Shown one piece after another: positions 1 through 53,931 of a stretch of DNA of 64,000 bases. The first letter of the stretch is position 1, and every line of letters begins with the position of its first letter. Below the pieces are notes generated by a model. It did not search any database. It was not told the DNA's origin and saw only the letters and a list, made by a program, of their open reading frames with translations. The position numbers and the translations under genes are program-made. This DNA is from an uncultured Candidatus Saccharibacteria bacterium. Lineage in GTDB: Bacteria; Patescibacteriota; Minisyncoccia; Phycocordibacterales; UBA2100. Location: contig CAYNRJ010000001.1 of NCBI GenBank assembly GCA_964399865.1, forward strand, positions 2,315 through 66,314. The letters run 5' to 3'.

Positions 1-3000
1 CGAAATGCATACTTTGCCGGAAGCGTCGGTATCGGTACTACATCTCCTGCGTATGCCCTCGATATAGCGGGATTTATAAACATTAATGAATATTCTGGAT
101 ACAAACAGAACGGTTCGACGATCCTCTTCGCCACAACGACAACAGGTCTTCTAGGGGTAGGCATCAATGCTCTTGCCAGCGCGATCTCAACTTCGACAGA
201 TGCCACTTCCGCTACGTACAGTGTAGCGGTTGGTGAGAACGCGCTTCGCTACGCGACCTCTTCAGACTTTAATACTGCCGTGGGCTGGAGCGCACTTCGA
301 GGGAGTTCTAGTGCTACGGCTAATAACTCTGGTGAACGTAATGTTGCTGTTGGATATGACTCGCTTCTTGCAAATACAACGGGCTCTCGAAACGTAGCGT
401 CAGGGTTTACCTCAATGTTGAACAATACGACAGGTTCAGACAATGTTGCTATCGGAAATGGTGCGCTCATGATTGCTACAAGTTCTTCTAATAACATAGC
501 TATTGGCACAGAGGCTCTTATTTCTCTGAGGACAAGCTCGGTCAACGATCTAGAGGGGAGTATAGCGATAGGATATGACGCTGGCGCAAGCGTAGTCTAC
601 GGAGGTGCAAACATCTTCATCGGTCATCTCGCTGGAGATAATCTCACCGGGGGCAGCAACAATATTATTATGGGGTATAGCATTGATGCTCCTTCAGCAA
701 CTCTTAGTGGCCAGCTCAATATTGGCAATATAATCTTTGGTACAGGCGTTGATTCAACAGGTACGACAATCGATACAAACGCACTTATAGGCATCGGGAC
801 ATCGACACCATGGGGTCGTTTGTCGGTCACTAATGTCGGAACAGAGCCATCTTTTGTTGTTCAGGACGAAGCCTCGCCAGACAACAGTCCGTTTATCATC
901 GACGCCACGGGGAACGTCGGAATCGGCACCACTTCTCCGTTCGCAAAACTCTCCGTCGTCGGTCAAACCGTAGGTGAATACTTCACCGCAACATCTACGG
1001 CTCGTGTATCTACGTTCCCATACGCATCAACCACCGCTATTACTGTTTCTGGTACCGCATCCTCTACATTACTTGTTGTCTCCGGTCTCAATGCAGCAGA
1101 CTGTGACGTGAAGGCGAGTGTGAACGGAGTCTTTTCTTGTGGCACTGACGCAGGAGGTGCCGGCGCGTCTCTCCAGGGTTCCTATGATGCAGGAGATACG
1201 ATTGAGACATCGGATGCAAACCCGATCGTTATTACCGAAACAGCCGCTGCGGCAAGTTCGCACAATCTGCTTGAGCTCGCTCCGAATCCGGCAGCTGGGG
1301 GCACGTTCTCCGGTAGCGCTCTGCAGATAACGATGGACGCAACTGACGCGAATGCGTATGCCGGTAATGGTCTCCGCATCGTCGTCGATCAATCACAAGT
1401 CGCATCGACGGCATACCCAATTCTTATTGAGGATGATGCTGGTGTAGACATATTCGCAGTTGCAGAGAACGGCGGACTCACCATCAACGGCGCGAATAGT
1501 GACGTCGTGCGCAGTTCGACCGCAGATTTCGCGCTCGGCACTGTCGGAGCAGGGCTCTCGAATGCAAATGGTCAGCTAAGTATGTCGAATGGAACAGTGC
1601 TGACCTCTAGCAACGGCATCATTACGACAGGGAGTCAGCCATCCGTGGATGCAGCCGTAAGCACCGGTGCACTTTCGATCGCAATTGCGAACGGGAAATA
1701 TCTAGTCATACGTGGAGGTGGAACGAATGCGATGTCTATTTATGATTCTGTAGCAGGCACGTTCACTGCTTCTTCGAGAACCTTGAACGGAACAGCTGGC
1801 GGTGGAACGCTCGCACTACCTCGTCCAGGAGGTACATACCGCATTCTTCATGGAAGCGGCTCACAGACGACCACGACTCTCATTGATCCTCAGGGGAATA
1901 TGTACCTCGGGTTTGGAACAACTACGGCCATGAACGCAGCCGTCGCGACTGGCACCGTCGCGTTTAGGCGACCTGACGGAAGATTCTTGATCGCAAACGG
2001 ACAAGGTGCCGGCACGACTCAGATTTATGATCCAATCGGTGATGTGTTCGTCGCAGGTCCTACGAACAGCGGTGGTGTCACTTGGGGCGCGGGAGCACTC
2101 GTCATCCCTATGGCCTCAAGTACGAGCGGAATCAGTTCAAGAGCACTATTTGTAACAGGGGGTGCGGCCGGCACAACTCAGATTTATAACAGCAGTGACG
2201 GTTCGGTATCAGGCATTGGTCCTCGCGGCTCATTCACTGTTGGACCACCGCTCGGTACGGGATGTGAAATAAACAACTGGGGTTCCGTAGCGATTGGGCG
2301 ACCAGACGGTAAATATGTGATTCTCTCCAAGATAAATGCCTCAGCGGTCTTCGATCCGATATTGGGTACGATGACGTGCCGCACATCTAACGGTCCTGGT
2401 GTCGCACTCGGTGTCGGCGCGCATGCGATTCCCCTCCAGAACGGTACTTTCCTCATCATCGTTGGTAGTGGTTCGACCGCATCGTATATTTACAATCCAA
2501 ATACCGACACGTTTACTTCACACGGGACCGCTCTCTCTGTCATCGGTGATGGCGCGCACTCTATTCTGAGGCAGGATGGCACATGGCAGATTCTCGCCGG
2601 AGGTACAACTACTCCAACAACCACAAATAATTTCGACACTGGTCTCCCAATGGCAGGCTCTGCTACGCGCTACACCTCAGATGATATTTCAACGACTGCT
2701 TTGAATCTCTCGTCAACGCTTAAGTGGGTAGCAGACGCACAAACGGCAATGGTTGGAAACGTAAACGCTACGTCCAGTCTCCAAATACTGGTACGCACGG
2801 CTGTAAATAGTGGCGGCTGTACAGCCCCCCTTGATGCAGCAACTGATAGGGAAATCCGTAACTCAGGAGACTTGATTGGTGCTGGTTCGACCGACAATTG
2901 TATCCGTATTACGGTTAACATGAGTCGACCAATACCAAAACGCATTATAGATGAACGCGGTACATTTACAGGAAACGGCTCAACTGTCACAGCGCTCGAT

Positions 3001-6000
3001 TATTACAACGTAAGTCTCCAGGAGCTCGTCGTCGATAACTCCTCGTTCCTCCGTCGTAACAACTTTGCATTTAATGTGGCAAGCGCTGATGCCGCCGCTC
3101 CACAGAGTGACGCTTCTGGTCCGGTCCTCACGAGAGCTGAAGCTCTTTCGGACAGAGTCTATCTTCCTTGGGGTCGTATTAATCCTACAACAGCGTCAGG
3201 AAGTACAGGATATTACTTTGGTACAACAACAATTGCTCATCCGCCAATTCCGCAAGCGCAGGCAACGACGAGTACAATTGTCATTGAACGGCCTAACAAA
3301 ACGTTCGTGATTATTGCTTCTCTTACGACTCCAGCCGCAAACGCTGCTCTGTATGATCCGAACACGCAGACGTTCACATCTCAGTCTGGAAGTAATATTC
3401 CAACCGCCGCGAATGGTCCTGGAGGCTTTGCGCTGAAACTCCCTAGCGGCAAGTTCCTAGTTGTTCTCGGAAATAATACTGTAACCACGAACTTCTACGA
3501 TCCTATTACGAATACCTTTAGCGCCGGGCCAGATCTTACTGTCGCGGCAAACCTTGGTGCAATCGCGATTCCGAATGCCGATGGAACGTACACCATTACC
3601 CACGGTGCTGGTGCTACAACATCGTCAATATTCGATCCAATACGCTACACGACGCAAAGAATGGCAACTGGCCCTACACAAACAACAGGCACTGCCTGCG
3701 GTGCTGCGGCTATACCGCTTCGTAACGGAAATTACAAGATTATCGTTGGTGCTGCAGACGGGGCAGCTGCAGCAGCAACAACGATGAACTATGATCCGCG
3801 CGCGAAAGTGTTTATTGCAGGTACAAATATGGTTACAAACGCCGTTGGCTGTGGATCGCAGGTCTTCCAAAGGGCAGACGGATTCTGGGAAGTGACTGGC
3901 GGCGGTACGACGTCAGGTGCAGGTACGCTCGTCACCAACATCATTAACCCAGACTCTGGTCAGACATCCATTGGTGCTCCGATGACTACTAACACCGCTG
4001 GAAAGGGTCAACTTCTCATTCCAAGACCTGACGGCACATTCTTACTTATCAGCGGTAACAACACAGTCAACACCAACATCATCATTCCGTATGGTGTCGG
4101 ACCTGCAGCATCTGCGGTCTCAGGCGTATCACAGCTCGGCGTTGCTCCAATTGGTCCTCCGCTTAACTTAGCTGTTGGTAATGGCTCTGTTGCCTTCCAA
4201 AGACCGGATGGTAAATTCGTTATCATTAACGGAAATGCAACAAGCAGCACACAGCTCATTGACGTTGGATGGTATCCGGACGGGCAGTATCTTTCTGAGC
4301 AGATTCAAATTCCTGCGCTCCCAGCAAACGCTGTACTTAACTGGAAGCAGACACCAGATAACTTTGTCTCAATGCGTGTGAGAGTTGCCTCATCACAGGC
4401 AAATCTCGCAACCTCGACATTTATTACTGTCGGGAAGCCTGGAACCAGTATCGCTAATGCGGGTGGCGAGACGTGGGCACAGATAGAAATTAACTTCCGC
4501 CGCGACTTCCCTGCATATAGTGGCGCAAAAGATAGCGTGTATGGAGGTTCCAGCAACAACGTCTATCCGTACCGCAATATCTCAACTCCGTCAGTATTTC
4601 AATTCCAGCTCAGTAATGGCCAGGATCTCCTCACACTCCAGACGAACGGTCGTAATCTGATGCGAGTTACATCTGATGGAAACATCTACTCTGCCGCCAA
4701 CGGTGGATTCTATAGTGGTGGTGCTGACTTGGCGGAAAATTACACTTCCACACAGACGCTCGTTGCTGGTGAGGTCGTGATGATCGATCCATCGAACGCA
4801 CAGGGTGTCATTCGCGCGACTGGTCAGTATCAAAATACGATACTCGGCGTTGTTTCGACTGAGCCAGGCTTCATTGCCGGCGCATTTACTGAAAATTCCT
4901 ACCCAATCGGTCTTATCGGTCGTGTACCTGTGAAGATCTCAACCGAGAATGGCCCAATTCGCTCAGGTGACATCCTCACTTCTGCGTCGATTTCTGGTTA
5001 TGCAATGCGCGCAACACAAGCTGGCCGCTCCCTTGGTAAGGCACTCGAGAATTTCGATGAGAGTACGGCGACCCCATGTCCTGCCGAGGGGCTCGGGAAT
5101 GTCGAATCTACAAAATGCGGAACGATCATGATGTTCGTTAACCTAGTCGATTACCTTGGTTCGCCAATAGAGCTAATGATGGATGAGGCAGGATTCTCAA
5201 TAGACGAGCCAGTACTAGCTTCCGAGGTTTCTGCGGACGAGGACGTACTCGAGGGCCTAGCGCTCGTCGCAGAGGCTCCGTCCGCTGACGAAAAGGCTGC
5301 CGCACGGAGAGCGCGCATACTCGCGTTCCTCCAGAACCTGAAAGAGCAGCGGGGAGCAATGGGCATAAGTTCTGAGATATTCACTGATCGCATTAGTTCT
5401 GCGTTCGAGATTGTCTCGCCACAGCTAACGACGGACACGCTTTCCGCAAATACGATCGCCGGGGTCTCAGGTGGTGTATCAGTCGCACTTGCTACAGGTA
5501 CACAATTCGCGATTATCAATAAAGACGCGTCGGGAAGCGCCTCTTCAACACCAGTAGCATCGTTTGATGCTTCTGGAAACCTATTTATCGGCGGTGATCT
5601 CGTCATTTTTGGTCGACCGTACTTTACAACTGACACTGCGGGCTTTGCTGTCGTGAAGGCGGGGAGTTCAAAAGTTGAAGTTATATTCGACCGAGAATAT
5701 CTCGAGCAGCCAATTGTAAACGCAAACATCTCGCTCGACGCTCTCCCTGACGAAGCGCAAGCGGCTGCTGCTGCGGAAGCAATCTTTTCGGATGATATCC
5801 GTTACCTTGTCACGGAAAAGAGCGCAAAAGGCTTCACGGTGCTTCTCAACAAACCGGCTTCTAAAGACATTCAGTTTAGTTGGATCGCTCTCGCGGTGAA
5901 GGGAGCTAAGACGTTCCAGTCAGCTGCTCCAGAAGGCGTTGATGTCGAAAACCCAGAACTTCCTGTTGAACCACAAGAATCTCCGGTGGAAGAAAACGAG

Positions 6001-6483
6001 GGTGGAGGCGAGTCGGAGCAGTCGGTCGAGGAGGAAATTGCGGAGGAGGAAACAGGGGGCTCTGGAGATGCGCCCCCACAAGTGACGGTGATAGGAGAGA
6101 GTCCTGTACGTATTGAAATAGGAACGGGGTATTCCGATCAGGGGGCGCTCGTTTCCGATGACCATGATACTGGGATCGGTCTCACGACGTTTGTAAACGG
6201 AGCGTTTTCCCTCGCAGTGCAATTGGACACCTCAACAACGACTTCATACGAGATCAAGTATCGCGCAACGGATTCAGCAGGGAACGTGACAGAAAAGACT
6301 CGCATTGTAGAAGTATATGAACCCGAAATACCAGTTTCTGAGGCGCAACCAGAATCTCTACCAGAGCCTGAGTCAGAACCAGCTCCTGAGCCGGAAGTAG
6401 TCGTAGGCTCAGCTCCTCAGTCAGAGTCCGCGGTAGAAGCTGAACCTAGCCCAGAACTTTCCTCTGAAATTGTAGAAGAGTAA
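1..6483 (+). CDS. Giant surface protein, 5'-partial. The frame is open from nt 1 (…YFAGSVGIGTTSPAYALDIAG…), so the gene starts upstream of the window. Mosaic: N-terminal tail-fibre-like G/N/T/S-rich repeats; about 12 repeats of ~45 aa carrying (I/F)YDP motifs (beta-propeller/Kelch-like); an internal phage tail-fibre intramolecular-chaperone / peptidase S74-like domain; a DUF5011-like Ig domain; an acidic P/E-rich tail.
   Basis: No stop codon in frame 1 from nt 1. Repeats such as NVAVGYDSLLANTTGSRNVASGF..DNVAIGNGAL; periodic TQIYDPIGDVF / SYIYNPNTDTFTSHG / ALYDPNTQTFTSQSG / TNFYDPITNTFSAGP / SIFDPIRYTTQ / MNYDPRAKVFIAG; the segment GGADLAENYTSTQTLVAGEVVMIDPS…LGVVSTEPGFIAG…IGRVPVKISTENGPIRSGDILTSASISGYAMRAT; the segment PQVTVIGESPVRIEIGTGYSDQGALVSDDHDTGI…YRATDSAGNVTEKTRIVEVYE; and a C-terminal run PESLPEPESEPAPEPE. 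Confidence 0.75.
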   Translation, partial: RNAYFAGSVGIGTTSPAYALDIAGFININEYSGYKQNGSTILFATTTTGLLGVGINALASAISTSTDATSATYSVAVGENALRYATSSDFNTAVGWSALRGSSSATANNSGERNVAVGYDSLLANTTGSRNVASGFTSMLNNTTGSDNVAIGNGALMIATSSSNNIAIGTEALISLRTSSVNDLEGSIAIGYDAGASVVYGGANIFIGHLAGDNLTGGSNNIIMGYSIDAPSATLSGQLNIGNIIFGTGVDSTGTTIDTNALIGIGTSTPWGRLSVTNVGTEPSFVVQDEASPDNSPFIIDATGNVGIGTTSPFAKLSVVGQTVGEYFTATSTARVSTFPYASTTAITVSGTASSTLLVVSGLNAADCDVKASVNGVFSCGTDAGGAGASLQGSYDAGDTIETSDANPIVITETAAAASSHNLLELAPNPAAGGTFSGSALQITMDATDANAYAGNGLRIVVDQSQVASTAYPILIEDDAGVDIFAVAENGGLTINGANSDVVRSSTADFALGTVGAGLSNANGQLSMSNGTVLTSSNGIITTGSQPSVDAAVSTGALSIAIANGKYLVIRGGGTNAMSIYDSVAGTFTASSRTLNGTAGGGTLALPRPGGTYRILHGSGSQTTTTLIDPQGNMYLGFGTTTAMNAAVATGTVAFRRPDGRFLIANGQGAGTTQIYDPIGDVFVAGPTNSGGVTWGAGALVIPMASSTSGISSRALFVTGGAAGTTQIYNSSDGSVSGIGPRGSFTVGPPLGTGCEINNWGSVAIGRPDGKYVILSKINASAVFDPILGTMTCRTSNGPGVALGVGAHAIPLQNGTFLIIVGSGSTASYIYNPNTDTFTSHGTALSVIGDGAHSILRQDGTWQILAGGTTTPTTTNNFDTGLPMAGSATRYTSDDISTTALNLSSTLKWVADAQTAMVGNVNATSSLQILVRTAVNSGGCTAPLDAATDREIRNSGDLIGAGSTDNCIRITVNMSRPIPKRIIDERGTFTGNGSTVTALDYYNVSLQELVVDNSSFLRRNNFAFNVASADAAAPQSDASGPVLTRAEALSDRVYLPWGRINPTTASGSTGYYFGTTTIAHPPIPQAQATTSTIVIERPNKTFVIIASLTTPAANAALYDPNTQTFTSQSGSNIPTAANGPGGFALKLPSGKFLVVLGNNTVTTNFYDPITNTFSAGPDLTVAANLGAIAIPNADGTYTITHGAGATTSSIFDPIRYTTQRMATGPTQTTGTACGAAAIPLRNGNYKIIVGAADGAAAAATTMNYDPRAKVFIAGTNMVTNAVGCGSQVFQRADGFWEVTGGGTTSGAGTLVTNIINPDSGQTSIGAPMTTNTAGKGQLLIPRPDGTFLLISGNNTVNTNIIIPYGVGPAASAVSGVSQLGVAPIGPPLNLAVGNGSVAFQRPDGKFVIINGNATSSTQLIDVGWYPDGQYLSEQIQIPALPANAVLNWKQTPDNFVSMRVRVASSQANLATSTFITVGKPGTSIANAGGETWAQIEINFRRDFPAYSGAKDSVYGGSSNNVYPYRNISTPSVFQFQLSNGQDLLTLQTNGRNLMRVTSDGNIYSAANGGFYSGGADLAENYTSTQTLVAGEVVMIDPSNAQGVIRATGQYQNTILGVVSTEPGFIAGAFTENSYPIGLIGRVPVKISTENGPIRSGDILTSASISGYAMRATQAGRSLGKALENFDESTATPCPAEGLGNVESTKCGTIMMFVNLVDYLGSPIELMMDEAGFSIDEPVLASEVSADEDVLEGLALVAEAPSADEKAAARRARILAFLQNLKEQRGAMGISSEIFTDRISSAFEIVSPQLTTDTLSANTIAGVSGGVSVALATGTQFAIINKDASGSASSTPVASFDASGNLFIGGDLVIFGRPYFTTDTAGFAVVKAGSSKVEVIFDREYLEQPIVNANISLDALPDEAQAAAAAEAIFSDDIRYLVTEKSAKGFTVLLNKPASKDIQFSWIALAVKGAKTFQSAAPEGVDVENPELPVEPQESPVEENEGGGESEQSVEEEIAEEETGGSGDAPPQVTVIGESPVRIEIGTGYSDQGALVSDDHDTGIGLTTFVNGAFSLAVQLDTSTTTSYEIKYRATDSAGNVTEKTRIVEVYEPEIPVSEAQPESLPEPESEPAPEPEVVVGSAPQSESAVEAEPSPELSSEIVEE

Positions 6484-7551: not shown

Positions 7552-8037
7552 ATGCCCGTGAAAACGTGCTTTAATTACAGCGATATAGAGCGAGCTATTG
7601 ATTTTTTTATTATGCCAACCCCAAGCGTTTCGGTCCCATGGATGAATTCAAAAATTGTCATCGCTATTCTAGTTTTTCTACTAGTTGGGGCTGGTGGGGC
7701 AGCATATTACTTTTACTCAAAGGCATCGGTTGTGCAGACAGAATCACAGGAAGACACGCAAAAAGAAGTTCAATCACTTATTGATGAAATAGGGAAGTTA
7801 ATCATGCTTCCTGAAGGTGAGACGCCGACAATTGCAACGGTTTCTAACCCAGAGCGTCTCAAGGATCAACCTTTTTTCGCCAAGGCAAAAGCGGGAGATA
7901 AAGTTCTCATTTATACGATAGCGAGGAAAGCGTTTTTGTATGATCCTGTCGCAGGAAAACTCATAGAAGTCGCACCTCTTAGTACGGCCACGGGCGCTGA
8001 AGTGGAGACAGATGTTTCAGGAGCGATTTCTGAGTAA
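7552..8037 (+). CDS. Hypothetical single-pass membrane protein; the likely true start is the internal Met near nt 7642 (MNSKIVIAILVFLLVGAGG…).
   Basis: ORF with one N-terminal TM helix followed by a soluble domain. No recognisable motif. Confidence 0.4.
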   Translation: MPVKTCFNYSDIERAIDFFIMPTPSVSVPWMNSKIVIAILVFLLVGAGGAAYYFYSKASVVQTESQEDTQKEVQSLIDEIGKLIMLPEGETPTIATVSNPERLKDQPFFAKAKAGDKVLIYTIARKAFLYDPVAGKLIEVAPLSTATGAEVETDVSGAISE

Positions 8038-8060: not shown

Positions 8061-9401
8061 ATGGCATACCGAACAAACACTATAGCGATCGGTATTATGC
8101 TGGGACTATTTTTTCTGTTTTCTTCCGTTTCTCTTGCGGATGAATTTACTTCCGGTGATTATAAAATAGTCGATCCCGTCATCGTGCCGTCGGGATTCGC
8201 GACGTCTTCTAGCTTTCAGTTGTGGAGCACCATCTCTGAATTAGCAACAGGAACAAGCACGGCGACAACGTTTTCTCTAAGTTCCGGATTTCTTACATTC
8301 CCATTCGTCTCTACCCCGGTAGTTTCTGCAACTGCTGGTGACGCTCAAGTATCAATTTCGTGGAGCGCTTCGGAAGGATTCCTCGGATGGAGTATATCGG
8401 GGTATGACATCGCTCGGGCCACGGTTTCTGGCGGTCCATACACATACTCAGATGTTGGAAATGTTCTTAGTAGTACAAGAACCGGCCTCACTAATGGGAC
8501 CACGTACTATTTTGTTGTCGTTCCGAAGGATATATTTGGGAATAGAATCGCCACTTCGACAGAAGTATCCGCGACGCCGGTTGCATCAAGTGGGGGCGGA
8601 GGTGGTGGTGGAGGAGGTGGTGGCGGGGGCGGTGGAGGAGGCGGTGGAGCAGCAGCGCCGTCCGGTGCGAATGTATTCTTTTCAGGACGCGCGTATCCTG
8701 GAAGTACCGTAGTTCTCCTTAAGGACGCGCAGGTGGCCGCTACAACTGTTGCAGGAGCAGATGCGAAATTCCAAATCGCCCTCGGAGGGCTTTCAACCGG
8801 GAACTTTATATTCTCAATGTATGGTGAAGATAAAGCTGGCAATCGCTCCTCGCTCCTGTCGTTTCCGGTGAGCGTAACAGCCAATGTGTTTACGAATGTC
8901 GGTGGTATTTTCATTTCACCATCGATTACAACTGACAAGGCTGAGGTGAGAAAAGGAGACAATATAGCAATCTTCGGACAATCATCGCCAAAGTCAGACA
9001 TAGTCATCGCGGTGAACTCTGAAGAAGAATTATTCGCGCAGGTAAAGGCGGATGATAGTGGAGCGTATCTCCTAAATTTTGACACATCGGTTCTCGAGAT
9101 GGGAAGTCACACAGCAAAATCAAAGGCGGCATTGGCAGGGGAGATAAGTACATACAGCAAAGCTGCCGCGTTTACCGTAGGAACAAAAAATGTGGTTGCT
9201 CTCGTTACTACGAAGAAAGCCACAAAGGGTGACGCAAGTGGAGACGGAAAAGTGAACCTCGTAGATTTTTCAGTTGCTGCCTATTGGTATAAACGCCCGC
9301 TCACCCCAGCCTTTAGGGAAATCGAGAAGACGATGCTCAACGGCGACGGACAAGTAACACTCGCTGACTTCTCCATCATAGCCTATCACTGGGGAGGATG
9401 A
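8061..9401 (+). CDS. Secreted dockerin-containing protein: signal peptide, FN3 domain, 20-residue poly-Gly linker, two Ig-like / CarboxypepD_reg-like domains, C-terminal type I dockerin (two Ca-binding F-hand repeats).
   Basis: FN3 signature (QVSISWSAS…LTNGTTYYFVV). Dockerin repeats GDASGDGKVNLVDFSVAAYWY and LNGDGQVTLADFSIIAYHW at the C-terminus. Confidence 0.7.
   Translation: MAYRTNTIAIGIMLGLFFLFSSVSLADEFTSGDYKIVDPVIVPSGFATSSSFQLWSTISELATGTSTATTFSLSSGFLTFPFVSTPVVSATAGDAQVSISWSASEGFLGWSISGYDIARATVSGGPYTYSDVGNVLSSTRTGLTNGTTYYFVVVPKDIFGNRIATSTEVSATPVASSGGGGGGGGGGGGGGGGGGGAAAPSGANVFFSGRAYPGSTVVLLKDAQVAATTVAGADAKFQIALGGLSTGNFIFSMYGEDKAGNRSSLLSFPVSVTANVFTNVGGIFISPSITTDKAEVRKGDNIAIFGQSSPKSDIVIAVNSEEELFAQVKADDSGAYLLNFDTSVLEMGSHTAKSKAALAGEISTYSKAAAFTVGTKNVVALVTTKKATKGDASGDGKVNLVDFSVAAYWYKRPLTPAFREIEKTMLNGDGQVTLADFSIIAYHWGG
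8592..8651 (+). repeat. GGN trinucleotide tract encoding 20 consecutive glycines (low-complexity, slippage-prone coding repeat).
   Basis: ggg ggc gga ggt ggt ggt gga gga ggt ggt ggc ggg ggc ggt gga gga ggc ggt gga read directly; translates to G20 inside the dockerin-protein ORF. Confidence 0.9.
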
Positions 9402-10324
9402 TATTGAGTATGCAGATAACAACAAAAAAAATTAGTATGTACGGATTGCTCTCTCTGCTCGTTGGCGTTTTGTACGTCTTAAGTATGACGGATGTTTACG
9501 CAGCAGAAATCATCGCTAGAACTCCGTCCGGAGTCGGCGTGGGAGATGCATTTACTGTCTCGGTTTTGCTCGACACAGAAGATGAGCGCATCAATGCTTT
9601 AGAGGGAACTCTCCAGTACACACGCTCTACACTCGTGCTCCGAGAATTGCGCACGGGTAATTCGATCGTTAATTTCTGGGTTGAGCAACCTAGTATAGAT
9701 AAACCTGGGTCCGTACGCTTTGCAGGGGTAACTCCGGGAGGCTTTCATGGAAATGAGGGAGAGATCTTTACTCTCGTATTTGAAGCGGTTAAAAGCGGTC
9801 GGGCGGAGATATCTCTTCAAGATGGAAAAGCGTATAGAAATACTGACGATGGAATTGCCTTCCCGCTCGTAGCTCGCATCCCCGCGTTTGCAATTAGCGA
9901 AAAGGGAGGAGGGATGTCGGTGCAGTCAATTTTAGAAACTGACAAGACACCACCTGAGTCCTTTACTCCCATGATTGCCACGGATCAATCTCTTTTTGAG
10001 GGGCGATCATTTATCGTTTTTGCAACGCAAGATAAAGGATCAAGTGTCGATCATTATGAAGTAGCAGAGCGCAAAGGATTTCCGTTTGCCCTCTTACGAA
10101 AAATGGTTTGGCAAAAAGCGGTGAGCCCGTTCGTGCTCTCTGATCAGTCGCGTATGTCATATGTATACGTGAAAGCTGTCGACAAAGCGGGAAATGAGCG
10201 CATCGCGCGGTTATCCCCTTCGCATCAATTTTTCTACTTTAGTAACACAGCGCTTATCGCTATACTTCTTGTATTGTTCGGCTCGGTGTTACTTTTTTAT
10301 GTACGAAAACGCAAGATTCGGTAG
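9398..10324 (+). CDS. Type I membrane protein with an extracellular cohesin-like domain (signal peptide, cohesin, C-terminal TM anchor); start ATGA-overlaps the upstream stop.
   Basis: AEIIARTPSGVGVGDAFTVSVLLDTEDERINALEGTLQYTRSTLVL…GSVRFAGVTPGG…EIFTLVFEAVKSGRAEISL matches the cohesin pattern. C-terminal hydrophobic helix ALIAILLVLFGSVLLFYV followed by RKRKIR. Confidence 0.6.
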   Translation: MILSMQITTKKISMYGLLSLLVGVLYVLSMTDVYAAEIIARTPSGVGVGDAFTVSVLLDTEDERINALEGTLQYTRSTLVLRELRTGNSIVNFWVEQPSIDKPGSVRFAGVTPGGFHGNEGEIFTLVFEAVKSGRAEISLQDGKAYRNTDDGIAFPLVARIPAFAISEKGGGMSVQSILETDKTPPESFTPMIATDQSLFEGRSFIVFATQDKGSSVDHYEVAERKGFPFALLRKMVWQKAVSPFVLSDQSRMSYVYVKAVDKAGNERIARLSPSHQFFYFSNTALIAILLVLFGSVLLFYVRKRKIR

Positions 10325-11513
10325 GCTGTTAGGGTATGTAAGCATAGGATTTGTCGCGAGCCTATGTTTTTTTATATCTGCAGGGGTGACACACGCTGCG
10401 ACTCTCTCGCTTTCACCATCATCCGGCTCATATTCGGCCGGAGATACTCTGACAGTATCAATCCTAGTTTCGAGTACGGATCAAGCCATCAATGCTGCGT
10501 CTGGTACCATACATTTTCCCGAAGATGTATTGCAGGTACTCTCCATCTCTAAAGCGAATTCAATTTTGACCCTATGGGTACAAGAGCCTTCCTTTTCCAA
10601 TACTTCTGGCACGGTAGATTTTGCCGGCGTAGTGCCCAATCCAGGCTATACCGGTAGTGGAGGTAATCTCATAACCGTACGCTTCCGTGCTCGTTCTCCG
10701 GGTACTGCAAACCTTACAATTTCACCTGCCGAGACGCTTGCAAACGACGGCAGCGGCACGAATGTATTAGCCGGTGCTTCTGGTGCAACGATCACGATTA
10801 CTTCGGCAAAGGCAACCATACAAGATTCACAAAGGCCACCTGCTGAAGATCTGGAGGAATCGGCAGAGGAAGTTGAGTCTGACACCGGTATACAACCACC
10901 GATTATAACGAGCTCAACGAAACGTGTCCCCCTCGGAGGGGCAGCTGAAGTAACAGGTTCTTCTATTTATCCTGGTGCTACGGCGGAGCTTACACTTCAG
11001 GGTTCTGGCGGTATTATTCTCACGGTTAACGGTTCCGTCGGAGAGAACGGGGTATTTTCTCTAACCCAACAGCATTCCATAATTCCAGGTGAGTACATTG
11101 GATCAGTGGTTGTCCATCAGGGCAATGCCCAAAGCTCTCCCTCTGAGCCGTTCGTCATAACGTTTGAAGGGGAGCCATTCCTTTCAAAAGCGCTCGATTT
11201 TCTGATGCAGCCGATGCTTCTTATCACGTATGGCTTTATAGCGGCATTCGGGATAGGACTTGTGCTCGGCAGATACTTCTTTAGGTCGAAAAAACTTACC
11301 GTGAACGATGCCCTCTATGATGTAGATGTTGAGGTGCATAAATCGTTCCTCAAGCTTCGCGAACGTATTAATCAGTCAATTGCAGAATTACAGCGAGAGA
11401 GTGAAAATCGTGAACTCACCGATGCGGAAGCGCGATTCATTAAGCAAATGACGGGAACCATTAAAGATACCGAGAAGGCAGTCGAGAAAGATATACACCA
11501 GGCCGAGCATTAA
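10299..11513 (+). CDS. Second cohesin-domain type I membrane protein (signal peptide, cohesin, Ig-like region, TM, charged coiled-coil cytoplasmic tail). Start chosen at ATG 10299 (MYENARFGRLLGYV…); the ORF track extends upstream to 10194.
   Basis: AATLSLSPSSGSYSAGDTLTVSILVSSTDQAINAASGTIHFPEDVLQVLSISKANS…GTVDFAGVVPNPGYTGSGGNLITVRFRARSPGTANLTI is paralogous to the upstream cohesin. TM LLITYGFIAAFGIGLVLG; C-terminal E/K-rich tail. Confidence 0.6.
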   Translation: MYENARFGRLLGYVSIGFVASLCFFISAGVTHAATLSLSPSSGSYSAGDTLTVSILVSSTDQAINAASGTIHFPEDVLQVLSISKANSILTLWVQEPSFSNTSGTVDFAGVVPNPGYTGSGGNLITVRFRARSPGTANLTISPAETLANDGSGTNVLAGASGATITITSAKATIQDSQRPPAEDLEESAEEVESDTGIQPPIITSSTKRVPLGGAAEVTGSSIYPGATAELTLQGSGGIILTVNGSVGENGVFSLTQQHSIIPGEYIGSVVVHQGNAQSSPSEPFVITFEGEPFLSKALDFLMQPMLLITYGFIAAFGIGLVLGRYFFRSKKLTVNDALYDVDVEVHKSFLKLRERINQSIAELQRESENRELTDAEARFIKQMTGTIKDTEKAVEKDIHQAEH

Positions 11514-11584: not shown

Positions 11585-11719
11585 ATGGAAGGCTTAAATA
11601 CTTTTTTGAAAATGCTGATCGATTTTCTCGTGCAGATACTCACGCTTTTTGTTAATTTTTTTATCGCCCTTCTCAATCTTATTTTGGACTTCGCACGTAG
11701 TATTGCGGGAATGGTATAG
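11585..11719 (+). CDS. 44-aa hydrophobic micro-protein (MEGLNTFLKMLIDFLVQILTLFVNFFIALLNLILDFARSIAGMV), not in the ORF track because it is under 60 aa.
   Basis: ATG at 11585 to TAG at 11717-11719; a single predicted TM helix; followed 10 nt later by a perfect GC hairpin. Confidence 0.35.
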   Translation: MEGLNTFLKMLIDFLVQILTLFVNFFIALLNLILDFARSIAGMV

Positions 11720-11720
11720 A

Positions 11721-11748
11721 AACAAAACGCGGGGCCATTTGGCCCCGC
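11721..11748 (-). terminator. Rho-independent terminator hairpin (gcggggcc-attt-ggccccgc) with the U-run on the minus-strand side. Terminates the minus gene 11779..11970; it also lies just 3' of the plus micro-ORF.
   Basis: Perfect 8-bp GC stem at 11729-11748; AAACAAAAC on the plus strand gives a U-rich tract on minus-strand RNA. Confidence 0.6.
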
Positions 11749-11778
11749 GTCGTCACACTTCAGAAGAGAATAGAGAAA

Positions 11779-11970
11779 TTATTCTTCTGGTGTTGGATTC
11801 GTTCCGATATTCACCTCAAGTCCGTTGTTCGTTTCCTCAACGGGTGCAGCTTTGCCGTACTTCATATACCACCATACTCCGCCACCCACCAAAATGAGAA
11901 GCACAAGCACGATGAGGATCGTGTTCACTCCGCTTCCGCTATTCACATTTCCTGTATTTGTATCGTCCAT
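11779..11970 (-). CDS. Small signal-anchored protein with a TM helix followed by a GGGVWWY motif.
   Basis: ILIVLVLLILVGGGVWWYMKYG; shares the TM-GGVWW(W)Y module with the divergent gene at 12059. Confidence 0.4.
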   Translation of the reverse strand: MDDTNTGNVNSGSGVNTILIVLVLLILVGGGVWWYMKYGKAAPVEETNNGLEVNIGTNPTPEE

Positions 11971-12058
11971 GGATATAGATTAATTATTAATATTTGTATG
12001 TTCCTCATAGTATCACGCACTGAAGAGCACGATTCAGCCTTGAATATTCAGGGAGTGG

Positions 12059-12640
12059 ATGTACAGTTTATACATGATAAAAAACGTTTACATTCCCACG
12101 ATACTCATCACGGTCTTCCTCACAATTGCCGGAGGAGTGTGGTGGTGGTACCTAGGATCTCCTTCGCTTGACGAATTGAAAGCGCGCATACGTACCCCGA
12201 TCGCACGTGAAGAAGAGACGCCTGCCGCAGAGACGTCGCAAGTTTTCGTTGCGTTCTTGGATACCGCAGGAACGACAAACGGAAAGGAGAGGGGTTGCGA
12301 CAAGGTGGTTATGGTTCCGTATACGATAGATAAGACGAGAGCACCGCTTACGATCGCTCTCTTTATCTTGTTCGATATTGATGAGGAGAACGCCAATGGA
12401 CTCTTCAGCTACATCGCGCGCACGAATGATACACTCGCTTTCGACCGTGCGACCGTGGTAGATGGCACAGCTCATATCTATCTCACGGGATCTCTCACCG
12501 GGCTCGCAGGAGTCTGCGATGATCCACGTGCTGCAATTCAAATTGAGGAGACAGCCCTCCAATTCCCAACGGTGCAGCGAGTGCAGCTATACCTGAACGA
12601 AGAGCCTACAACCCTCATCCCTGACATGCGTGGGGAATAG
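12059..12640 (+). CDS. Signal-anchored protein with a possible GerMN-like domain.
   Basis: N-terminal TM plus AGGVWWWYLGSP. The C-terminal segment TVVDGTAHIYLTGSLTGLAGVCDDPRAAIQIEETALQFPTVQRVQLYLNEEP resembles GerMN (sporulation/germination M) domains; weak. Confidence 0.35.
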   Translation: MYSLYMIKNVYIPTILITVFLTIAGGVWWWYLGSPSLDELKARIRTPIAREEETPAAETSQVFVAFLDTAGTTNGKERGCDKVVMVPYTIDKTRAPLTIALFILFDIDEENANGLFSYIARTNDTLAFDRATVVDGTAHIYLTGSLTGLAGVCDDPRAAIQIEETALQFPTVQRVQLYLNEEPTTLIPDMRGE

Positions 12641-12651
12641 TATCTACAAGT

Positions 12652-13047
12652 ATGAAAACAACACGAGAAAAACTAGCTGACCTGTTTGGGTTCGGGTTCG
12701 CGCTGTGGCTCTTCGGATTTGTCCTCGGTATGATGCTGTTCTCTATCGTTCCAACAGCATATCTCGGTCTTGTCATTACACCGTTCGCGTTTGCCGCCGC
12801 TCTCTGGGTTTGTCTGAGACGTTTTCGAGGGAGAGGTGATAGTGGCTTGTACCTTCTCTCTGTGGGCGCTGTATGGCTCTTTATCGCCGTTTCGTTCGAC
12901 TACATATTTCTTGTAAGAGCGTTTTCTGTGGCGAATTATTACGATTTTGATGTGTTTTTGTATTATTTCATTACATTTTTCCTCCCTATTGCGGTGGGGC
13001 GAAGAAATACACAGAGTGCGCCTATACAAGCAGAAGAGGGTATATAG
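12652..13047 (+). CDS. Hypothetical polytopic membrane protein (3-4 TM).
   Basis: Hydrophobic helices, no motif. Confidence 0.4.
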   Translation: MKTTREKLADLFGFGFALWLFGFVLGMMLFSIVPTAYLGLVITPFAFAAALWVCLRRFRGRGDSGLYLLSVGAVWLFIAVSFDYIFLVRAFSVANYYDFDVFLYYFITFFLPIAVGRRNTQSAPIQAEEGI

Positions 13048-13056
13048 TTGTGGTAT

Positions 13057-13227
13057 ATGGCAATGGAAAAGATAAAGATTGAGCAGCACACCGTTTCGGG
13101 AGGTGTATGGATCGCATTCTGGCTCTTCACGATCGGGTACCTCAAGCTGACGTTTTGGCAGGGAGTACTCGCAGTTGTGATTTGGCCGTATTACCTTGGC
13201 AACGCGCTCAGCTCAGTAGCACAGTAG
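13057..13227 (+). CDS. 56-aa two-helix membrane micro-protein (MAMEKIKIEQHTVSGGVWIAFWLFTIGYLKLTFWQGVLAVVIWPYYLGNALSSVAQ).
   Basis: ATG 13057 to TAG 13225-13227; in an operon-like position between membrane-protein genes. Confidence 0.3.
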   Translation: MAMEKIKIEQHTVSGGVWIAFWLFTIGYLKLTFWQGVLAVVIWPYYLGNALSSVAQ

Positions 13228-13266
13228 TTCGAAAATCGCCGCTCTTGGTGCGGTAGAATAAAGAAA

Positions 13267-13821
13267 ATGGAATCCAAAGCGACTTTTAAGCGCCATCTAA
13301 AGAGGGATCTTGTTCTTATCGCGCTCAGTACCGCTGCGGCTATAGCGGTAAGTCAGAGTGGGCTGTTTGAGCAGCTCTTTCACATGGACGTGCAGAGTAA
13401 ATATATCGCTGCATTTATCGCAGGAGTATTTTTTACTTCATTTTTCTCAACTCCCTTTGCGATCGCGATGTTCATATCACTTGCGCCCGATATGAGTGTG
13501 CCGGTCATGGTTTTAATTGGCGCGACGGGCGCGCTCCTCGGAGACCTATTTCTTTTTGGATTAATACGAAATACGTTTGCTGCGGATGTTGAATATCTCC
13601 TCGGAAAGAAGCATGTACATAAAAGATTTAAAGCAGCATTTGATCGGCGAGTGTTTCGCTGGATATTGCCATTTGTAGGTGCGCTCATCATCGCTTCACC
13701 GCTTCCCGATGAACTTGGCATTACCCTGATGGGAGTCTCCACTATGAGTGTACGGACCCTGCTTCCCATTTCTTTTGCAATGAATGCGCTTGGAATCTCA
13801 CTTATTGCGCTCATTGCATAA
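13267..13821 (+). CDS. Hypothetical polytopic membrane protein (about 5 TM).
   Basis: Hydrophobicity pattern only. Confidence 0.4.
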   Translation: MESKATFKRHLKRDLVLIALSTAAAIAVSQSGLFEQLFHMDVQSKYIAAFIAGVFFTSFFSTPFAIAMFISLAPDMSVPVMVLIGATGALLGDLFLFGLIRNTFAADVEYLLGKKHVHKRFKAAFDRRVFRWILPFVGALIIASPLPDELGITLMGVSTMSVRTLLPISFAMNALGISLIALIA

Positions 13822-16445: not shown

Positions 16446-17645
16446 ATGGATCTAGAGAAGGCCGCACACGAAGTATTTTTGAAAAATCGACGGAATATAA
16501 ACGGCCATCACTACACTCTTCCTTCCTCTGATCACTACCCGTATCAATGGCTTTGGGATTCTTGCTTTCATGCAATTGTACTCGCGCGCACAGAGCCGCA
16601 GATAGCACGGGAAGAAATACAGGCACTTCTATCACGCCAATTCGAGAACGGACTTGTTCCACACATTATCTATTGGACTCCAGGCATCCTTCATCTGTTT
16701 AGGTGGGGGACTGAAGGCACGAGCTCACTTACGCAGCCCCCGATGCTCGCGTACGCGGTATGGGAAATACATACGAAATCTCCCGATATGCCCTTCTTGG
16801 AGTCGGTGTTCCCAGCACTTCTCCGCTACTATAAATTCCTGTTAACGGAACGCGATCCGCGCGGGCATCACCTGGCGGGAATTATTAACCCTGACGAATC
16901 TGGCGAGGATAATTCGCCGCGCTTTGATGAGCCTCTTGGGGCAGGCCCGGATATATCTCTCGATGATCATCTCCAAAAACGGCATGAGCTCGTGGATGAG
17001 AATCGTGTCTGTAAATTTGATGCCGCGACCTGCATGCGATATCACTTCTGGGTCAAAGACGTTCTATTTAATACGGTCTTGGTAGAGAATTTGAGAGCCC
17101 TGGCACGAATTGCTTCTGCGCTCAATCGCGAGGACGAGGCACACTTACTTTATAAAGACGCCAATAGTGTGGCGGCAGCGATGCGCGAGCATATGTTTGA
17201 AGATGGCGTGTACTGGTCCACGAGCGGCGCTGACTTTAAAAAACTTAAAGTGAATACCTGGTCACATTTTGTTCCGATGTTTGCGGGGCTGTACTCAAAG
17301 GAAGAGGCGGAGGATGTTATGCGTACACATTTTCGTAATGACAATACTTTCAAGGCGTCCTTTGGTATTCGTACTGTATCAAAACAGGAACAATCCTACC
17401 GTTCCTCGTCCGCTGTCGATGATTTTTCTTGGCGGGGACCCATATGGTTCGCATCACAGTGGTTTATTTACAAAGGTCTCCAGCGGTACGGATACATTGA
17501 AGATGCTGCATGGATACGGGAAACAAGTATTCGGTTATTGGAGAAATCTGGGTTTCGGGAATGTTTTAACCCGGACACTGGAGTCGGGTATGGTGCACGG
17601 CACTTCACATGGGGTGCATTAATCCTTGATATGATGGAGGAATGA
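16446..17645 (+). CDS. Six-hairpin (alpha/alpha)6 glycoside hydrolase (GH63/GH37/GH15-superfamily-like; possibly a trehalase or mannosylglycerate-hydrolase-type enzyme).
   Basis: HYPYQWLWDSCFHAIVL motif near the N-terminus, typical of (alpha/alpha)6-barrel glycosidases; sits in a sugar-metabolism cluster. Confidence 0.45.
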   Translation: MDLEKAAHEVFLKNRRNINGHHYTLPSSDHYPYQWLWDSCFHAIVLARTEPQIAREEIQALLSRQFENGLVPHIIYWTPGILHLFRWGTEGTSSLTQPPMLAYAVWEIHTKSPDMPFLESVFPALLRYYKFLLTERDPRGHHLAGIINPDESGEDNSPRFDEPLGAGPDISLDDHLQKRHELVDENRVCKFDAATCMRYHFWVKDVLFNTVLVENLRALARIASALNREDEAHLLYKDANSVAAAMREHMFEDGVYWSTSGADFKKLKVNTWSHFVPMFAGLYSKEEAEDVMRTHFRNDNTFKASFGIRTVSKQEQSYRSSSAVDDFSWRGPIWFASQWFIYKGLQRYGYIEDAAWIRETSIRLLEKSGFRECFNPDTGVGYGARHFTWGALILDMMEE

Positions 17646-18581: not shown

Positions 18582-20831
18582 TTGTCCAAAAACGTCCTAA
18601 AAATCACCCCAATGAAGCATATCCTTTTGATAATCGGCGGAGGTATCGTGGTACTGAGCGCGATGACCTTTGTCTTTACGATAACGCAGGTAGAGCAGGA
18701 GCGTGCATCGCTTTCTGCCGATCTTCAATATCGCACACGACTTCTCGCGGACTCACTCAAGGAATCAGTAGAGCCCTCATATCGCGCAGGAATGATGGAA
18801 TCTGTTGAGGCACTCGTCGCGAAATTTACTGACCGCGAACGTCTTGCTGGACTCGCAGTTCTCGATCGTGACGGAGTTATTCTGACGGCGTCTGGAGAAA
18901 TTCCGGAGCCAGTGCAGAGTAATATGCCGCTCGTGACTCGGGCCATGGACTTCAACGCCTCAGAGGGTGAGTTTTTGCGAAGCGGAAGGAGTCATTTCTA
19001 CGTATTTGCTTCACCGCTTAGAGCCAATGAACTACCAGAGGGAGTGCTTCTCGTCATTCAGGACGCAGACTACATTGATAGTGCTGTTCTCAGTATCTTG
19101 TGGAACAACTTTGTTCGTTTTGCGGTGCAGGTGCTGTTCTATTCAGCAGTTGTTCTTCTGATCGTACGCTGGATCATCGTTAAACCACTTTCGCGCCTTG
19201 CAGAATCGGTGAAATCCGTGCGCGCAGGAAAGGGGGGAGCGGATTCTACGCTCGAGCACCCGTTCTTCTTTCAGCCGCTTGCGCACGAAATATTCAAAAT
19301 GTCTAAAAGTCTCACTCAGGCGCGATCTGCTGCGAGCGAGGAGGCGCGTATGCGATTGGAGAAACTCGACACACCTTGGACCGCGGAGCGATTAAAGGAA
19401 TTCGTGAAAGGTCATCTTAAAGATAGACCGATCGTACTCGTCTCAAATCGCGAGCCGTATGTGCACAACAGGGTAAATGGGGAAACGCAGTTCACTGTTC
19501 CTGCGAGCGGTCTAGTTACAGCGCTTGAGCCGGTCATGGAAGCGTGCGGCGGCCTTTGGATAGCGCATGGAAGCGGATCTGCAGATAGAGAAACTGCCGA
19601 TGAGGGCGGCAAGTTACAGGTCCCACCGGAAGAACCACACTACACACTAAAGAGAGTTTGGCTTACGCAAAAGGACATCCAGGGATTTTATACTGGCTTT
19701 TCCAATGAAGCTTTGTGGCCTCTTTGTCACACGGCGCACAATCGCCCCATATTCCGAAAAGAAGACTGGCTCGCGTATCGCCGCGTAAATGGAAAATTCG
19801 CTGAGGCACTCCTCGGCGAGATCAAGAATCTGCAGAATCCGATCATTCTCGTCCAGGATTATCATTTCGCACTCTTGCCGCACATGATCAAGAAAGCGCG
19901 ACCGGATGCGAGCGTCGGTCTTTTCTGGCACATTCCATGGCCGGGTGCCGAAAGTTTTAGTATCTGTCCTTGGAGAAAAGAATTACTCGACGGTATGCTC
20001 GGCGCCGACCTTATCGGCTTCCACACGCAGCAGTACTGCAACAACTTTATGGATACCGTGGGTAAGGAAATTGAAGCTCGTATAGATTTCGAACGATTTG
20101 GCATAAGTCGTGATGGGCATATTTCTCAGATCGAGGCTTTCCCAATTTCGATCGCCTTTACGAATGTGGATGCTCCTCACGACGAGACTGAAAATAAGGG
20201 CGTCTTTAAAAATCTTGGTATCGAGACCGAATTTATTGGTCTGGGTGTAGATCGTCTCGACTACACGAAGGGTATACTTGAGCGCTTTAAGGCGATCGAG
20301 TTCTTCCTTGATGCGCACAGAGATTATGTCGGGAAATTCACCTTCCTTCAGATTTCATCACCCTCAAGAGAAACGTCACAAAAATATCGTGAATACTCAG
20401 AAGAGTGCTCAGAAGCGGCGCAGCGCATCAATGATAAATTCGCAACAGGTGATTGGAAACCGATCGTATTCGAGAAACGACACTTTTCGCATGAGGAGCT
20501 TCGTCCTCTGTATGCGAACGCGGATTTCTGTCTTGTAACCTCCCTTCACGATGGCATGAACCTTGTCGCAAAGGAGTTCGTTGCTGCGCGAAACAATGAG
20601 AGTGGAGTACTTATCCTCAGTCAGTTTGCAGGTGCATCACGTGACCTCAAGGGATCGATCGTCATTAATCCCTATAGTGCCGAGGATGGTGCGGAGGCGA
20701 TCCATTCGGCTCTTACCATGTCACCCACAGAGCAACATCGTCGTATGAAAGCAATGAGAAATATCGTACGCGATAACAACGTCTACCGATGGTCCGCAGA
20801 ATTCCTAAAGACGCTCGCAAACCTCGTGTAA
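18582..20831 (+). CDS. otsA: Fusion protein: N-terminal TM, ~140-aa extracytoplasmic (Cache/PDC-like) domain, TM, HAMP-like linker, then trehalose-6-phosphate synthase (GT20, OtsA).
   Basis: TM1 HILLIIGGGIVVLSAMTFVFTI; TM2 FVRFAVQVLFYSAVVLLIVRWIIV; then IVLVSNREPY…WIAHGSG…LWPLCH…FWHIPWP…GADLIGFHT…, a canonical OtsA. Confidence 0.8.
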   Translation: MSKNVLKITPMKHILLIIGGGIVVLSAMTFVFTITQVEQERASLSADLQYRTRLLADSLKESVEPSYRAGMMESVEALVAKFTDRERLAGLAVLDRDGVILTASGEIPEPVQSNMPLVTRAMDFNASEGEFLRSGRSHFYVFASPLRANELPEGVLLVIQDADYIDSAVLSILWNNFVRFAVQVLFYSAVVLLIVRWIIVKPLSRLAESVKSVRAGKGGADSTLEHPFFFQPLAHEIFKMSKSLTQARSAASEEARMRLEKLDTPWTAERLKEFVKGHLKDRPIVLVSNREPYVHNRVNGETQFTVPASGLVTALEPVMEACGGLWIAHGSGSADRETADEGGKLQVPPEEPHYTLKRVWLTQKDIQGFYTGFSNEALWPLCHTAHNRPIFRKEDWLAYRRVNGKFAEALLGEIKNLQNPIILVQDYHFALLPHMIKKARPDASVGLFWHIPWPGAESFSICPWRKELLDGMLGADLIGFHTQQYCNNFMDTVGKEIEARIDFERFGISRDGHISQIEAFPISIAFTNVDAPHDETENKGVFKNLGIETEFIGLGVDRLDYTKGILERFKAIEFFLDAHRDYVGKFTFLQISSPSRETSQKYREYSEECSEAAQRINDKFATGDWKPIVFEKRHFSHEELRPLYANADFCLVTSLHDGMNLVAKEFVAARNNESGVLILSQFAGASRDLKGSIVINPYSAEDGAEAIHSALTMSPTEQHRRMKAMRNIVRDNNVYRWSAEFLKTLANLV

Positions 20832-53814: not shown

Positions 53815-53899
53815 GGAGGGTTCGCATAGTGGTCTAGTGCACACGCTTGGAAAGCGTGCGTGCCGCAAGGCACCGAGAGTTCGAATCTCTCACCCTCCG
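53815..53899 (+). tRNA. tRNA-Ser (anticodon GGA), class II with a long variable arm; no encoded CCA; followed by a T8 run.
   Basis: GGAGGGT-TC-GCA-TAGTGGTCTAG-TGC-A-CACGC-TTGGAAA-GCGTG-CGTGCCGCAAGGCACC-GAGAG-TTCGAAT-CTCTC-ACCCTCC-G folded by hand. Confidence 0.85.
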
Positions 53900-53931
53900 C
53901 TGAGATTTTTTTTAGCGCTCCTGCGCTTTAA

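Follow-up and report, generated by a model that had tools for sequence, protein, structure and literature searches.

A 64,000-nucleotide stretch of contig CAYNRJ010000001.1 (positions 2,315 to 66,314; hereafter the window) begins inside a giant gene whose product contains, well before its C-terminus, a domain (residues 1546-1716, numbered by codon from base 1 of the window) that is very probably a distant homologue of the C-terminal autochaperone of the phage phi29 protein gp12 (MEROPS G2). The product is read here as a secreted, probably trimeric surface protein of fibre type from a bacterium of the Candidate Phyla Radiation (CPR), in which this gp12-type autochaperone is internal and probably self-cleaving. 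We give this reading a probability of about 0.5, and self-cleavage of the domain within the giant protein, putatively at the bond A1575|D1576, has an even chance in our judgement. What appears to be new is that a phage G2-type autochaperone has moved to the interior of giant CPR surface fibres, elsewhere as tandem copies; a literature search found no paper that describes this domain family or links the domain to CPR bacteria.

The family to which the domain belongs is not the one first proposed. An initial annotation, made from the sequence alone, had likened this segment to the Peptidase S74 intramolecular chaperone (IMC) of phage tailspikes, and had named a search for that family and for its conserved Ser-Lys dyad as ways to check the proposal. 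Peptidase_S74 (PF13884) gave no match in the whole protein (E≤1) or in its segments (E≤10), and the dyad signature S-x-x-R-x-K, which corresponds to S911/K916 in endoNF (PMC8326128), is absent from all 2160 residues; in the S74 look-alike ‘ADLAEN’, Ala and Asn stand where Ser and Lys would stand. A weak match to PF11962 (Peptidase_G2, ‘IMC autoproteolytic cleavage domain’; E 0.016-0.043) pointed to a different family, which 12 of 38 relatives also match at E≤0.1 (best 6.9e-5). A search of the PDB sequences by phmmer with the whole protein or with residues 1501-1800 gave nothing meaningful, and the NCBIfam models gave a sub-threshold OmpL47 match only.

Profile and structure comparisons carry the assignment to the gp12 family. 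From 131 homologous proteins that were collected and trimmed to a 29-sequence alignment (A2), a profile was built for which phi29 gp12 was the only protein below E 0.01 among all PDB sequences (6qz9_A, 0.0036; 3gqh_A, 0.0059), and hhalign of A2 against gp12 residues 660-854, taken from the phi29 genome, gave a probability of 82.6% (E 9.7e-6). The AlphaFold2 model derived from A2 is all-beta (pLDDT 85.3, pTM 0.79), and its top Foldseek match in the PDB is 3gqh_A, ‘phi29 gene product 12 C-terminal fragment’ (E 4.5e-4, TM score 0.51/0.54), with the uncleaved gp12 entry 3suc in fourth place and mostly phage capsid cement proteins of similar fold in the rest of the list. In BFVD, a collection of predicted viral structures, 69 matches were found at E≤1e-3, some of them named ‘Preneck appendage protein’ or ‘Tail fiber protein’. 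The predicted model of residues 1546-1716 thus has the fold of gp12 domain D4, a beta-stranded autochaperone that drives trimerisation, is then cleaved off and has a fold unlike that of the S74-type chaperones (PMC4690869, PMC3357383, PMC13317679). The domain resembles gp12 D4 (PF11962; PDB 3GQH, 3SUC) in being all-beta, in lying downstream of a fibre or shaft and in carrying, at its N-terminal edge, a D-x-A-E motif in register with gp12 D692...E695; it differs in scoring below the Pfam gathering score, in showing ~15% identity in the structural alignment, in lying internally within a secreted cellular CPR protein, and in having relatives that often carry two or three copies in tandem.

These results leave a negligible chance that the segment is a Peptidase S74 or endosialidase-type IMC that cleaves by a Ser-Lys dyad. 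What favours that view is a general resemblance: the segment follows fibre-like repeats, and its ‘GGADLAENY’ looks superficially like ‘SDxRLKxNI’. The true S74 domain that precedes a homologue of the downstream region in the protein P0308 (see below) also speaks for it. However, the S74 proposal is already refuted at the level of sequence by the missing PF13884 match and signature, and at the level of fold by a model that is all-beta and gp12-D4-like, rather than showing the helical bundle with long tentacles that marks S74-type chaperones, from which gp12 D4 is described as different (PMC4690869). The S74 chaperones of endosialidase K1F, T5 pb1 and GA-1 gp12 fill a like functional niche, in which a fibre-terminal chaperone of trimerisation cuts itself off, but no sequence or fold kinship with the domain studied here was detected. 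Neither an S74 match nor a Ser-Lys pair, on which the initial annotation had staked its proposal, was therefore found, yet its underlying idea of an internal phage chaperone of the autoprocessing type survives through a different IMC family; the S74 family and the Ser-Lys chemistry are what has to be given up. The A2 profile also gave a single 38-residue match (E 0.98) between its part ‘GRVPVKV...GD’ and residues 3721-3758 of the Aureispira grappling-hook protein GhpA (PDB 9flp_A, a giant surface fibre of 5898 residues), which is probably due to chance, and a link to GhpA was rejected.

The case for self-cleavage centres on a short conserved motif. Both the profile search and hhalign align A1575|D1576-L-A-E1579 with gp12 S691|D692-F-A-E695, and the crystallised cleaved fragment 3gqh_A has gp12 D692 as its first residue. 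D692 and E695 are reportedly also the residues required for gp12 autocleavage, as attributed to Xiang et al. 2009 and MEROPS G2. Among 305 copies of the domain, drawn from 151 proteins, 295 retain the Asp and 299 each the Ala and the Glu, while the residue before the Asp (P1) varies among Y, F, A, S, M and G; internal copies and C-terminal copies of phage type show the same conservation of the motif. The pattern D[LFVIY]AE occurs once in the whole giant protein, at this site. The residues expected for a G2-type IMC are, in the sequences compared, present and under strong constraint, and D1576 and E1579 offer a concrete, mutable site for the study of maturation.

Several points weigh against the reading. 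The PF11962 score (13.7-15.0 bits) is below the gathering cutoff of 25, and a Foldseek TM score of ~0.5 with an rmsd near 8 Å is modest. In addition, release of the cleaved gp12 domain reportedly depends on ATP, and ATP is unavailable outside the cell. The principal alternative, which we rank as a serious contender somewhat short of an even chance, is a domain that does not cleave: a structural or trimerisation module (beta-tulip-like knot or autochaperone) that is kept in the mature fibre as part of one covalent chain, with D-x-A-E conserved for folding or for contacts between subunits and not for catalysis. In all 150 of the top-scoring family members, a ranking that favours proteins with several copies, two or three copies lie in tandem within one chain. 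Cleavage at every copy would divide such proteins into several pieces, so the tandem copies fit a structural module better. The capsid cement proteins of like fold are not known to self-cleave, the C-terminal autochaperone of the P22 tailspike remains in the mature protein (PMC3357383), and the region downstream of the domain is conserved and swapped like a functional tip. Against a purely structural role, near-invariance falls precisely on the residues that align with the gp12 cleavage site, conservation is equal in internal copies and in C-terminal copies of phage type, and in P0308 the equivalent position is taken by a bona fide self-cleaving S74 domain. The cement or decoration proteins themselves (Borrelia BB1, Sf11, Pam3, XM1 gp53 and TW1) resemble the domain in general fold by Foldseek (E 5e-4 to 4e-2), and a few members of the domain family touch Pfam cement families, but these proteins are small, stand alone and are not parts of fibres.

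The region that follows the domain bears on what cleavage would achieve. It comprises 444 residues, close to the ~450 initially reported, so the domain does not occupy the extreme C-terminal position that it has in gp12. Further modules of the adhesin type lie there, in line with the initial annotation, and the region as mapped holds a helical linker, a lectin-like beta-sandwich, an immunoglobulin (Ig)-like domain and an acidic tail (Table 1). Of the two families for which a hidden Markov model (HMM) search had been suggested, it is the former DUF5011 that was recovered, and not Peptidase_S74; the match to PF16403 lies above the gathering score, spans profile positions 2-71 of 71 and covers a domain 58% identical to its counterpart in a protein of Candidatus Kaiserbacteria (L002). 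The P/E-rich tail likewise stands as described (E 27%, P 20%, S 18%; pI 4.05), with analogous low-complexity tails in homologues. The top Foldseek matches of the beta-sandwich are the Helix agglutinins, SLL-2 and discoidins, followed by the tips of phage tailspikes and pyocin fibres. Its likeness to the H-type lectins (the agglutinins of Helix pomatia and Helix aspersa, SLL-2 and the C-terminal domain of discoidin) lies in the predicted fold, with weak E values (6.5e-3 to 1.6e-2) and a target TM score of ~0.52-0.54; unlike those proteins, it has no Pfam match, including to the H-type lectin family (PF09458).

The helices, lectin-like sandwich and low-complexity tail form a cassette that was found in 38 homologues. 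Among those with enough upstream sequence, its upstream partner is a G2-like domain in 14 cases; in the 480-residue protein P0308 a bona fide Peptidase_S74 domain (SSIRYKENI) lies directly upstream instead, and in P0273 the cassette belongs to a short protein of prepilin type, with the N-terminal methylation motif GFTLVE (PF07963). Since its partners vary in this way, ‘mosaic’, the term used in the initial annotation, describes the giant protein accurately. The presence of an S74 domain in the equivalent slot of P0308 suggests that the slot needs what both IMC families share, so two families of self-cleaving chaperones may be interchangeable upstream of the cassette, and a self-cleaving chaperone seems to be what the slot requires. 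The distribution also suggests that the cassette is a portable, exposed tip module that is displayed on a pilin-like protein as well. The downstream part therefore looks functional rather than disposable, because it is a conserved module, is lectin-like, occurs also on P0273 and is swapped beyond residue ~1823 between relatives. In a further protein, P0279, the helix and cassette are present and no pilin motif was detected.

If the domain acts as it does in phage fibres, it would nucleate the trimer and set its register after export, and would then probably hydrolyse A1575|D1576 through the conserved Asp1576/Glu1579 motif. The chain runs from a tailspike-like shaft through two predicted Kelch propellers, the autochaperone-type domain, a helical linker, the lectin-like sandwich and the Ig-like domain to the acidic tail, and the products would be an N-terminal piece of at least 1575 residues, with shaft and propellers, and a C-terminal piece of 585 residues (61 kDa, pI 4.1) that carries the domain together with the lectin/Ig tip. 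With the domain in an internal position, cleavage would not amount to the loss of a chaperone, and the two pieces could stay joined non-covalently, given that the C-terminal modules look functional and that the ATP said to be needed for release is absent outside the cell. The Kelch, lectin-like and Ig-like modules make a role as an adhesin or in host attachment plausible; like trimerisation, cleavage and retention of the pieces, such a role is something that we infer. It is improbable, in our view, that cleavage instead releases the 61-kDa piece, either as a soluble factor that resembles a lectin or as a discarded chaperone. The C-terminus has no membrane anchor and the cleaved domain leaves the fibre in phages (PMC3357383, PMC13317679), as such shedding would have it, but the lectin and Ig tip modules are conserved and swapped in a modular fashion, which suggests that they act as part of the fibre. 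[quoted passage not shown]

The domain belongs to a very large family with weak, sub-threshold matches only in Pfam, NCBIfam and PHROGs. An exhaustive HMM search of clusters formed at 50% identity found 32,971 cluster representatives at E≤1e-3 and 8,628 at E≤1e-30. Among short relatives found by a word index, the domain lies within 12 residues of the C-terminus in 100 of 120, and in cultured phages, whose distribution was read with the phage-like family member P0101 as query, it forms the extreme C-terminus of virion proteins, for example of gp359 of phage PA5oct, a virion protein that adjoins the long-tail-fibre gene; it also occurs in Campylobacter CP220-like phages, Phosso and Atu_ph07. A tblastn search of cultured phages with the giant protein's own domain gave a single match. 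The 150 top-scoring relatives (P0121-P0270) are proteins of 485-5766 residues, the named ones being ‘hypothetical proteins’ of Candidatus Woesebacteria and Falkowbacteria, in which the domain mostly has 150-800 further residues after it. P0123, for example, has copies at residues 3926-4076 and 4142-4291, P0121 has three, and D-x-A-E is kept in nearly every copy. Most of these relatives end in a small ‘GF.V....F[DNS]W..’ sandwich and an acidic or Pro-rich low-complexity tail, and a hydrophobic segment lies at the N-terminus of 84 of the 150 and at the C-terminus of none.

Complete relatives of the truncated gene show what it may have lost. Frame 1 of the window has no stop from base 1 until 6481-6483, giving 2160 codons and a stop. 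The initial annotation was right that the ORF runs off the 5' edge, since homology with the Kaiserbacteria protein begins at residue 26, upstream of the first GTG of the frame at 280, but its figure of 2067 residues counts from that GTG, the start given by the ORF listing (its residue numbers are ours minus 93). An exact 60-mer from the start of the window had no match in the JGI metagenomes, and exact look-ups of the neighbouring proteins, made to extend the gene in the 5' direction, returned only short Logan contigs of 3-8 kb. Two JGI metagenome contigs, L020 and L021, do hold complete syntenic relatives. The L020 ORF (3749-11686, 2645 residues) is 51.5% identical over 1371 residues (483-1823 against its 1055-2380) and is followed at 11683-13510 by a beta-lactamase-like gene and a 161-residue gene in the order of the window; the L021 ORF (4964-12187, 2407 residues) is collinear at 33% identity, carries a lectin-like module and is followed at 12364-12837 by the 161-residue neighbour, so synteny at the giant gene is kept across genomes of 39-50% G+C. 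At the head of both orthologues stand a hydrophobic, signal-like segment and an ‘N(F/Y)QG(K/R)L’ domain, from which the missing N-terminus of the truncated protein can be predicted, and these segments, along with those of the 84 family members noted above, point to secretion of the giant fibre protein. In each, a blade HMM detects two Kelch-type sets, one of seven blades and one of six or seven, and a single G2-like domain contains GGADLAERY or SGADLAERY; Pfam found nothing in the L020 protein and a single GH30-C match in that of L021, which is not meaningful. Collinearity with L020 stops just past the helices, near residue 1823, beyond which the three proteins bear different tip modules, and the Kaiserbacteria protein of L002 combines fibre, G2-like and Ig modules in another arrangement and without propellers.

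The chromosomal setting bears on whether the gene belongs to a phage. All named relatives of the GroEL encoded in the window (83-84% identity) are Candidatus Kaiserbacteria, Patescibacteria or Minisyncoccia, so the window comes from a CPR (Kaiserbacteria-like) chromosome, in agreement with what the initial annotation says of ultra-small bacteria. The 57 kb downstream of the giant ORF consist of housekeeping and cell-envelope genes: a beta-lactamase-like protein, Big_6 and cohesin-domain proteins, a GH18 with a peptidoglycan-binding domain, a GH63-like hydrolase, a GT20 trehalose-P synthase, a P-type ATPase, BipA, PyrD, GlmS, MetK, a Mur ligase, Ddl, RNase J, GroES/GroEL, an AcrB-type pump and one tRNA-Ser. 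No phage genes were detected in them. The G+C content of the giant ORF (~51%) falls within that of the remaining window (46-54%). A PHROG tailspike match and the abundance of the domain family in phage virion proteins could be taken to mean that the giant gene is a prophage or phage-derived tail-fibre gene and the domain simply a phage IMC in a phage context. We consider this highly improbable, and a prophage origin was rejected in view of the flanking housekeeping genes, the synteny in two other genomes of different G+C and the signal-like N-termini of the orthologues; the giant ORF lies in a CPR chromosome and not in a prophage.

The part of the protein that precedes the domain is consistent with a fibre that bears propellers. 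The phage tail-fibre-like repeats described in the initial annotation match PHROG 4636, ‘tail spike protein’, over residues 124-242 (E 7.5e-22), and the region that holds them is 62% identical to the giant ORF of L002. No Pfam family was found in this region, and identification of the N-terminal repeats as a YadA head was rejected for want of Pfam support. A two-cysteine module, ‘...SGLNAADCDVK....GVFSCGTD’ (window 1099-1152, residues 367-384), is also present in L002, L008 and L013; it is 59-76% identical across Kaiserbacteria, Sungiibacteriota and Saccharibacteria, which is unusually conserved for such fibres.

The IYDP-type beta-propeller repeats are likewise real, although they number 14 rather than about 12. 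They form two sets of seven blades of ~45 residues, with the consensus xGxxAIxRPDGTxxIxxGxxxxTTxIYDPxxxxF, and so follow the Kelch pattern of repeated four-stranded blades, six or seven to a propeller. An HMM built from the blades of set 1 scores 145 bits on the seven of set 2, whereas none of 100 shuffles exceeded 5.4, and the two propellers match each other by blastp at E 1e-15. Only Kelch and galactose-oxidase propellers stand at the top of the list when the blade profile is compared with the PDB (E 0.002-0.05), and both sets are predicted to be seven-bladed Kelch-type propellers. Like galactose-oxidase-type Kelch propellers, each has seven blades and is followed by a beta-rich domain; unlike them, the propeller is duplicated in tandem, and Pfam Kelch models stay below cutoff (Kelch_6 16.3-16.8 bits against 25.3, with a weak match at residues 1164-1181).

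A sizeable part of the tiny CPR genomes is given over to giant surface proteins that have hardly any annotation. The domain assignment provides an annotation handle for tens of thousands of ‘hypothetical’ proteins. A broader proposal, rather unlikely in our estimate, is that CPR bacteria moved a phage autochaperone inside giant fibres, where it would cleave itself after trimerisation and so create pre-cut, non-covalent joints before swappable, lectin-tipped modules. If true, such joints would provide a break-away or exchangeable adhesive tip that works outside the cell without ATP, analogous to autoproteolytic joints of the SEA/GAIN type and to MyRF but built on a different protease family. 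This offers a hypothesis for the extracellular assembly of long trimeric adhesins by episymbionts and for the exchange of adhesin tips, and if cleavage is confirmed, the self-cleaving G2 family would extend from phage virions to cellular surface architecture.

Table 1. Features of the giant ORF, with nucleotide positions in the window; aa, residues numbered by codon from base 1.
Feature	Position	Strand	Basis or remark
5'-truncated giant ORF	1..6483	+	at least 2160 aa, N-terminus cut off; collinear with complete 2645-aa L020 orthologue
Fibre-like G/N/T/S-rich region, aa 1-~400, repeated ‘GxVGIGTTSP..L.V’ motifs	1..1200	+	PHROG match
Kelch-type beta-propeller 1, 7 blades (predicted), aa 558-880	1672..2640	+	blade alignment A5; PDB profile matches
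Domain between propellers, aa 881-1085	2641..3255	+	no family match; conserved in L020 orthologue
Kelch-type beta-propeller 2, 7 blades (predicted), aa 1086-1432	3256..4296	+	HMM of propeller-1 blades
Beta-rich segment leading into autochaperone-type domain, aa 1433-1545	4297..4635	+	kept in near relatives (P0003-P0005) and in L020
G2-like (phi29 gp12 D4-type) autochaperone domain, aa 1546-1716	4636..5148	+	local HMM envelope; profile and fold matches
A1575-D1576-L-A1578-E1579, putative scissile bond A1575|D1576	4723..4737	+	aligned on gp12 S691-D692-F-A-E695
Conserved helical linker, ‘SEIFTDR..’ motif, helices aa 1762-1785 and 1792-1801	5284..5403	+	AlphaFold2 secondary structure; 38 homologues
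H-type-lectin-like beta-sandwich, ‘FFGRPYFTTDTAGFA...FSWIALAVK’, aa 1876-1975	5626..5925	+	pLDDT 88-98; Foldseek
Bacterial surface Ig-like domain PF16403 (ex-DUF5011), aa 2029-2105	6085..6315	+	41.2 bits against cutoff 27; E 1.7e-10
P/E/S-rich acidic low-complexity tail, aa 2106-2160	6316..6480	+	composition

Other genes of the window add several observations. The giant gene is adjoined by the beta-lactamase-like gene (PF13354; 6505-7506, reverse strand) and then by the 161-residue gene (7552-8037, forward strand), whose product has a hydrophobic, transmembrane-like stretch. More putative surface proteins lie directly downstream (8061-11513), of which the first has 446 residues and a Big_6 Ig domain; the ORFs at 9398-10324 and 10194-11513 overlap, and the second of these contains the cohesin domain. 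The GT20 trehalose-6-phosphate-synthase domain occupies only residues 285-746 of a 749-residue ORF (18582-20831), the first ~285 residues of which have no family match, and the gene for the GH63/MGH1-like hydrolase (16446-17645) lies just upstream. The tRNA-Ser(GGA) at 53815-53900 is the sole RNA gene detected in the window. CPR cells are thought to lack an outer membrane, and the full-length AcrB/RND-type transporter encoded at 58063-61194 (PF00873, E 9e-181) is unexpected for such a cell.

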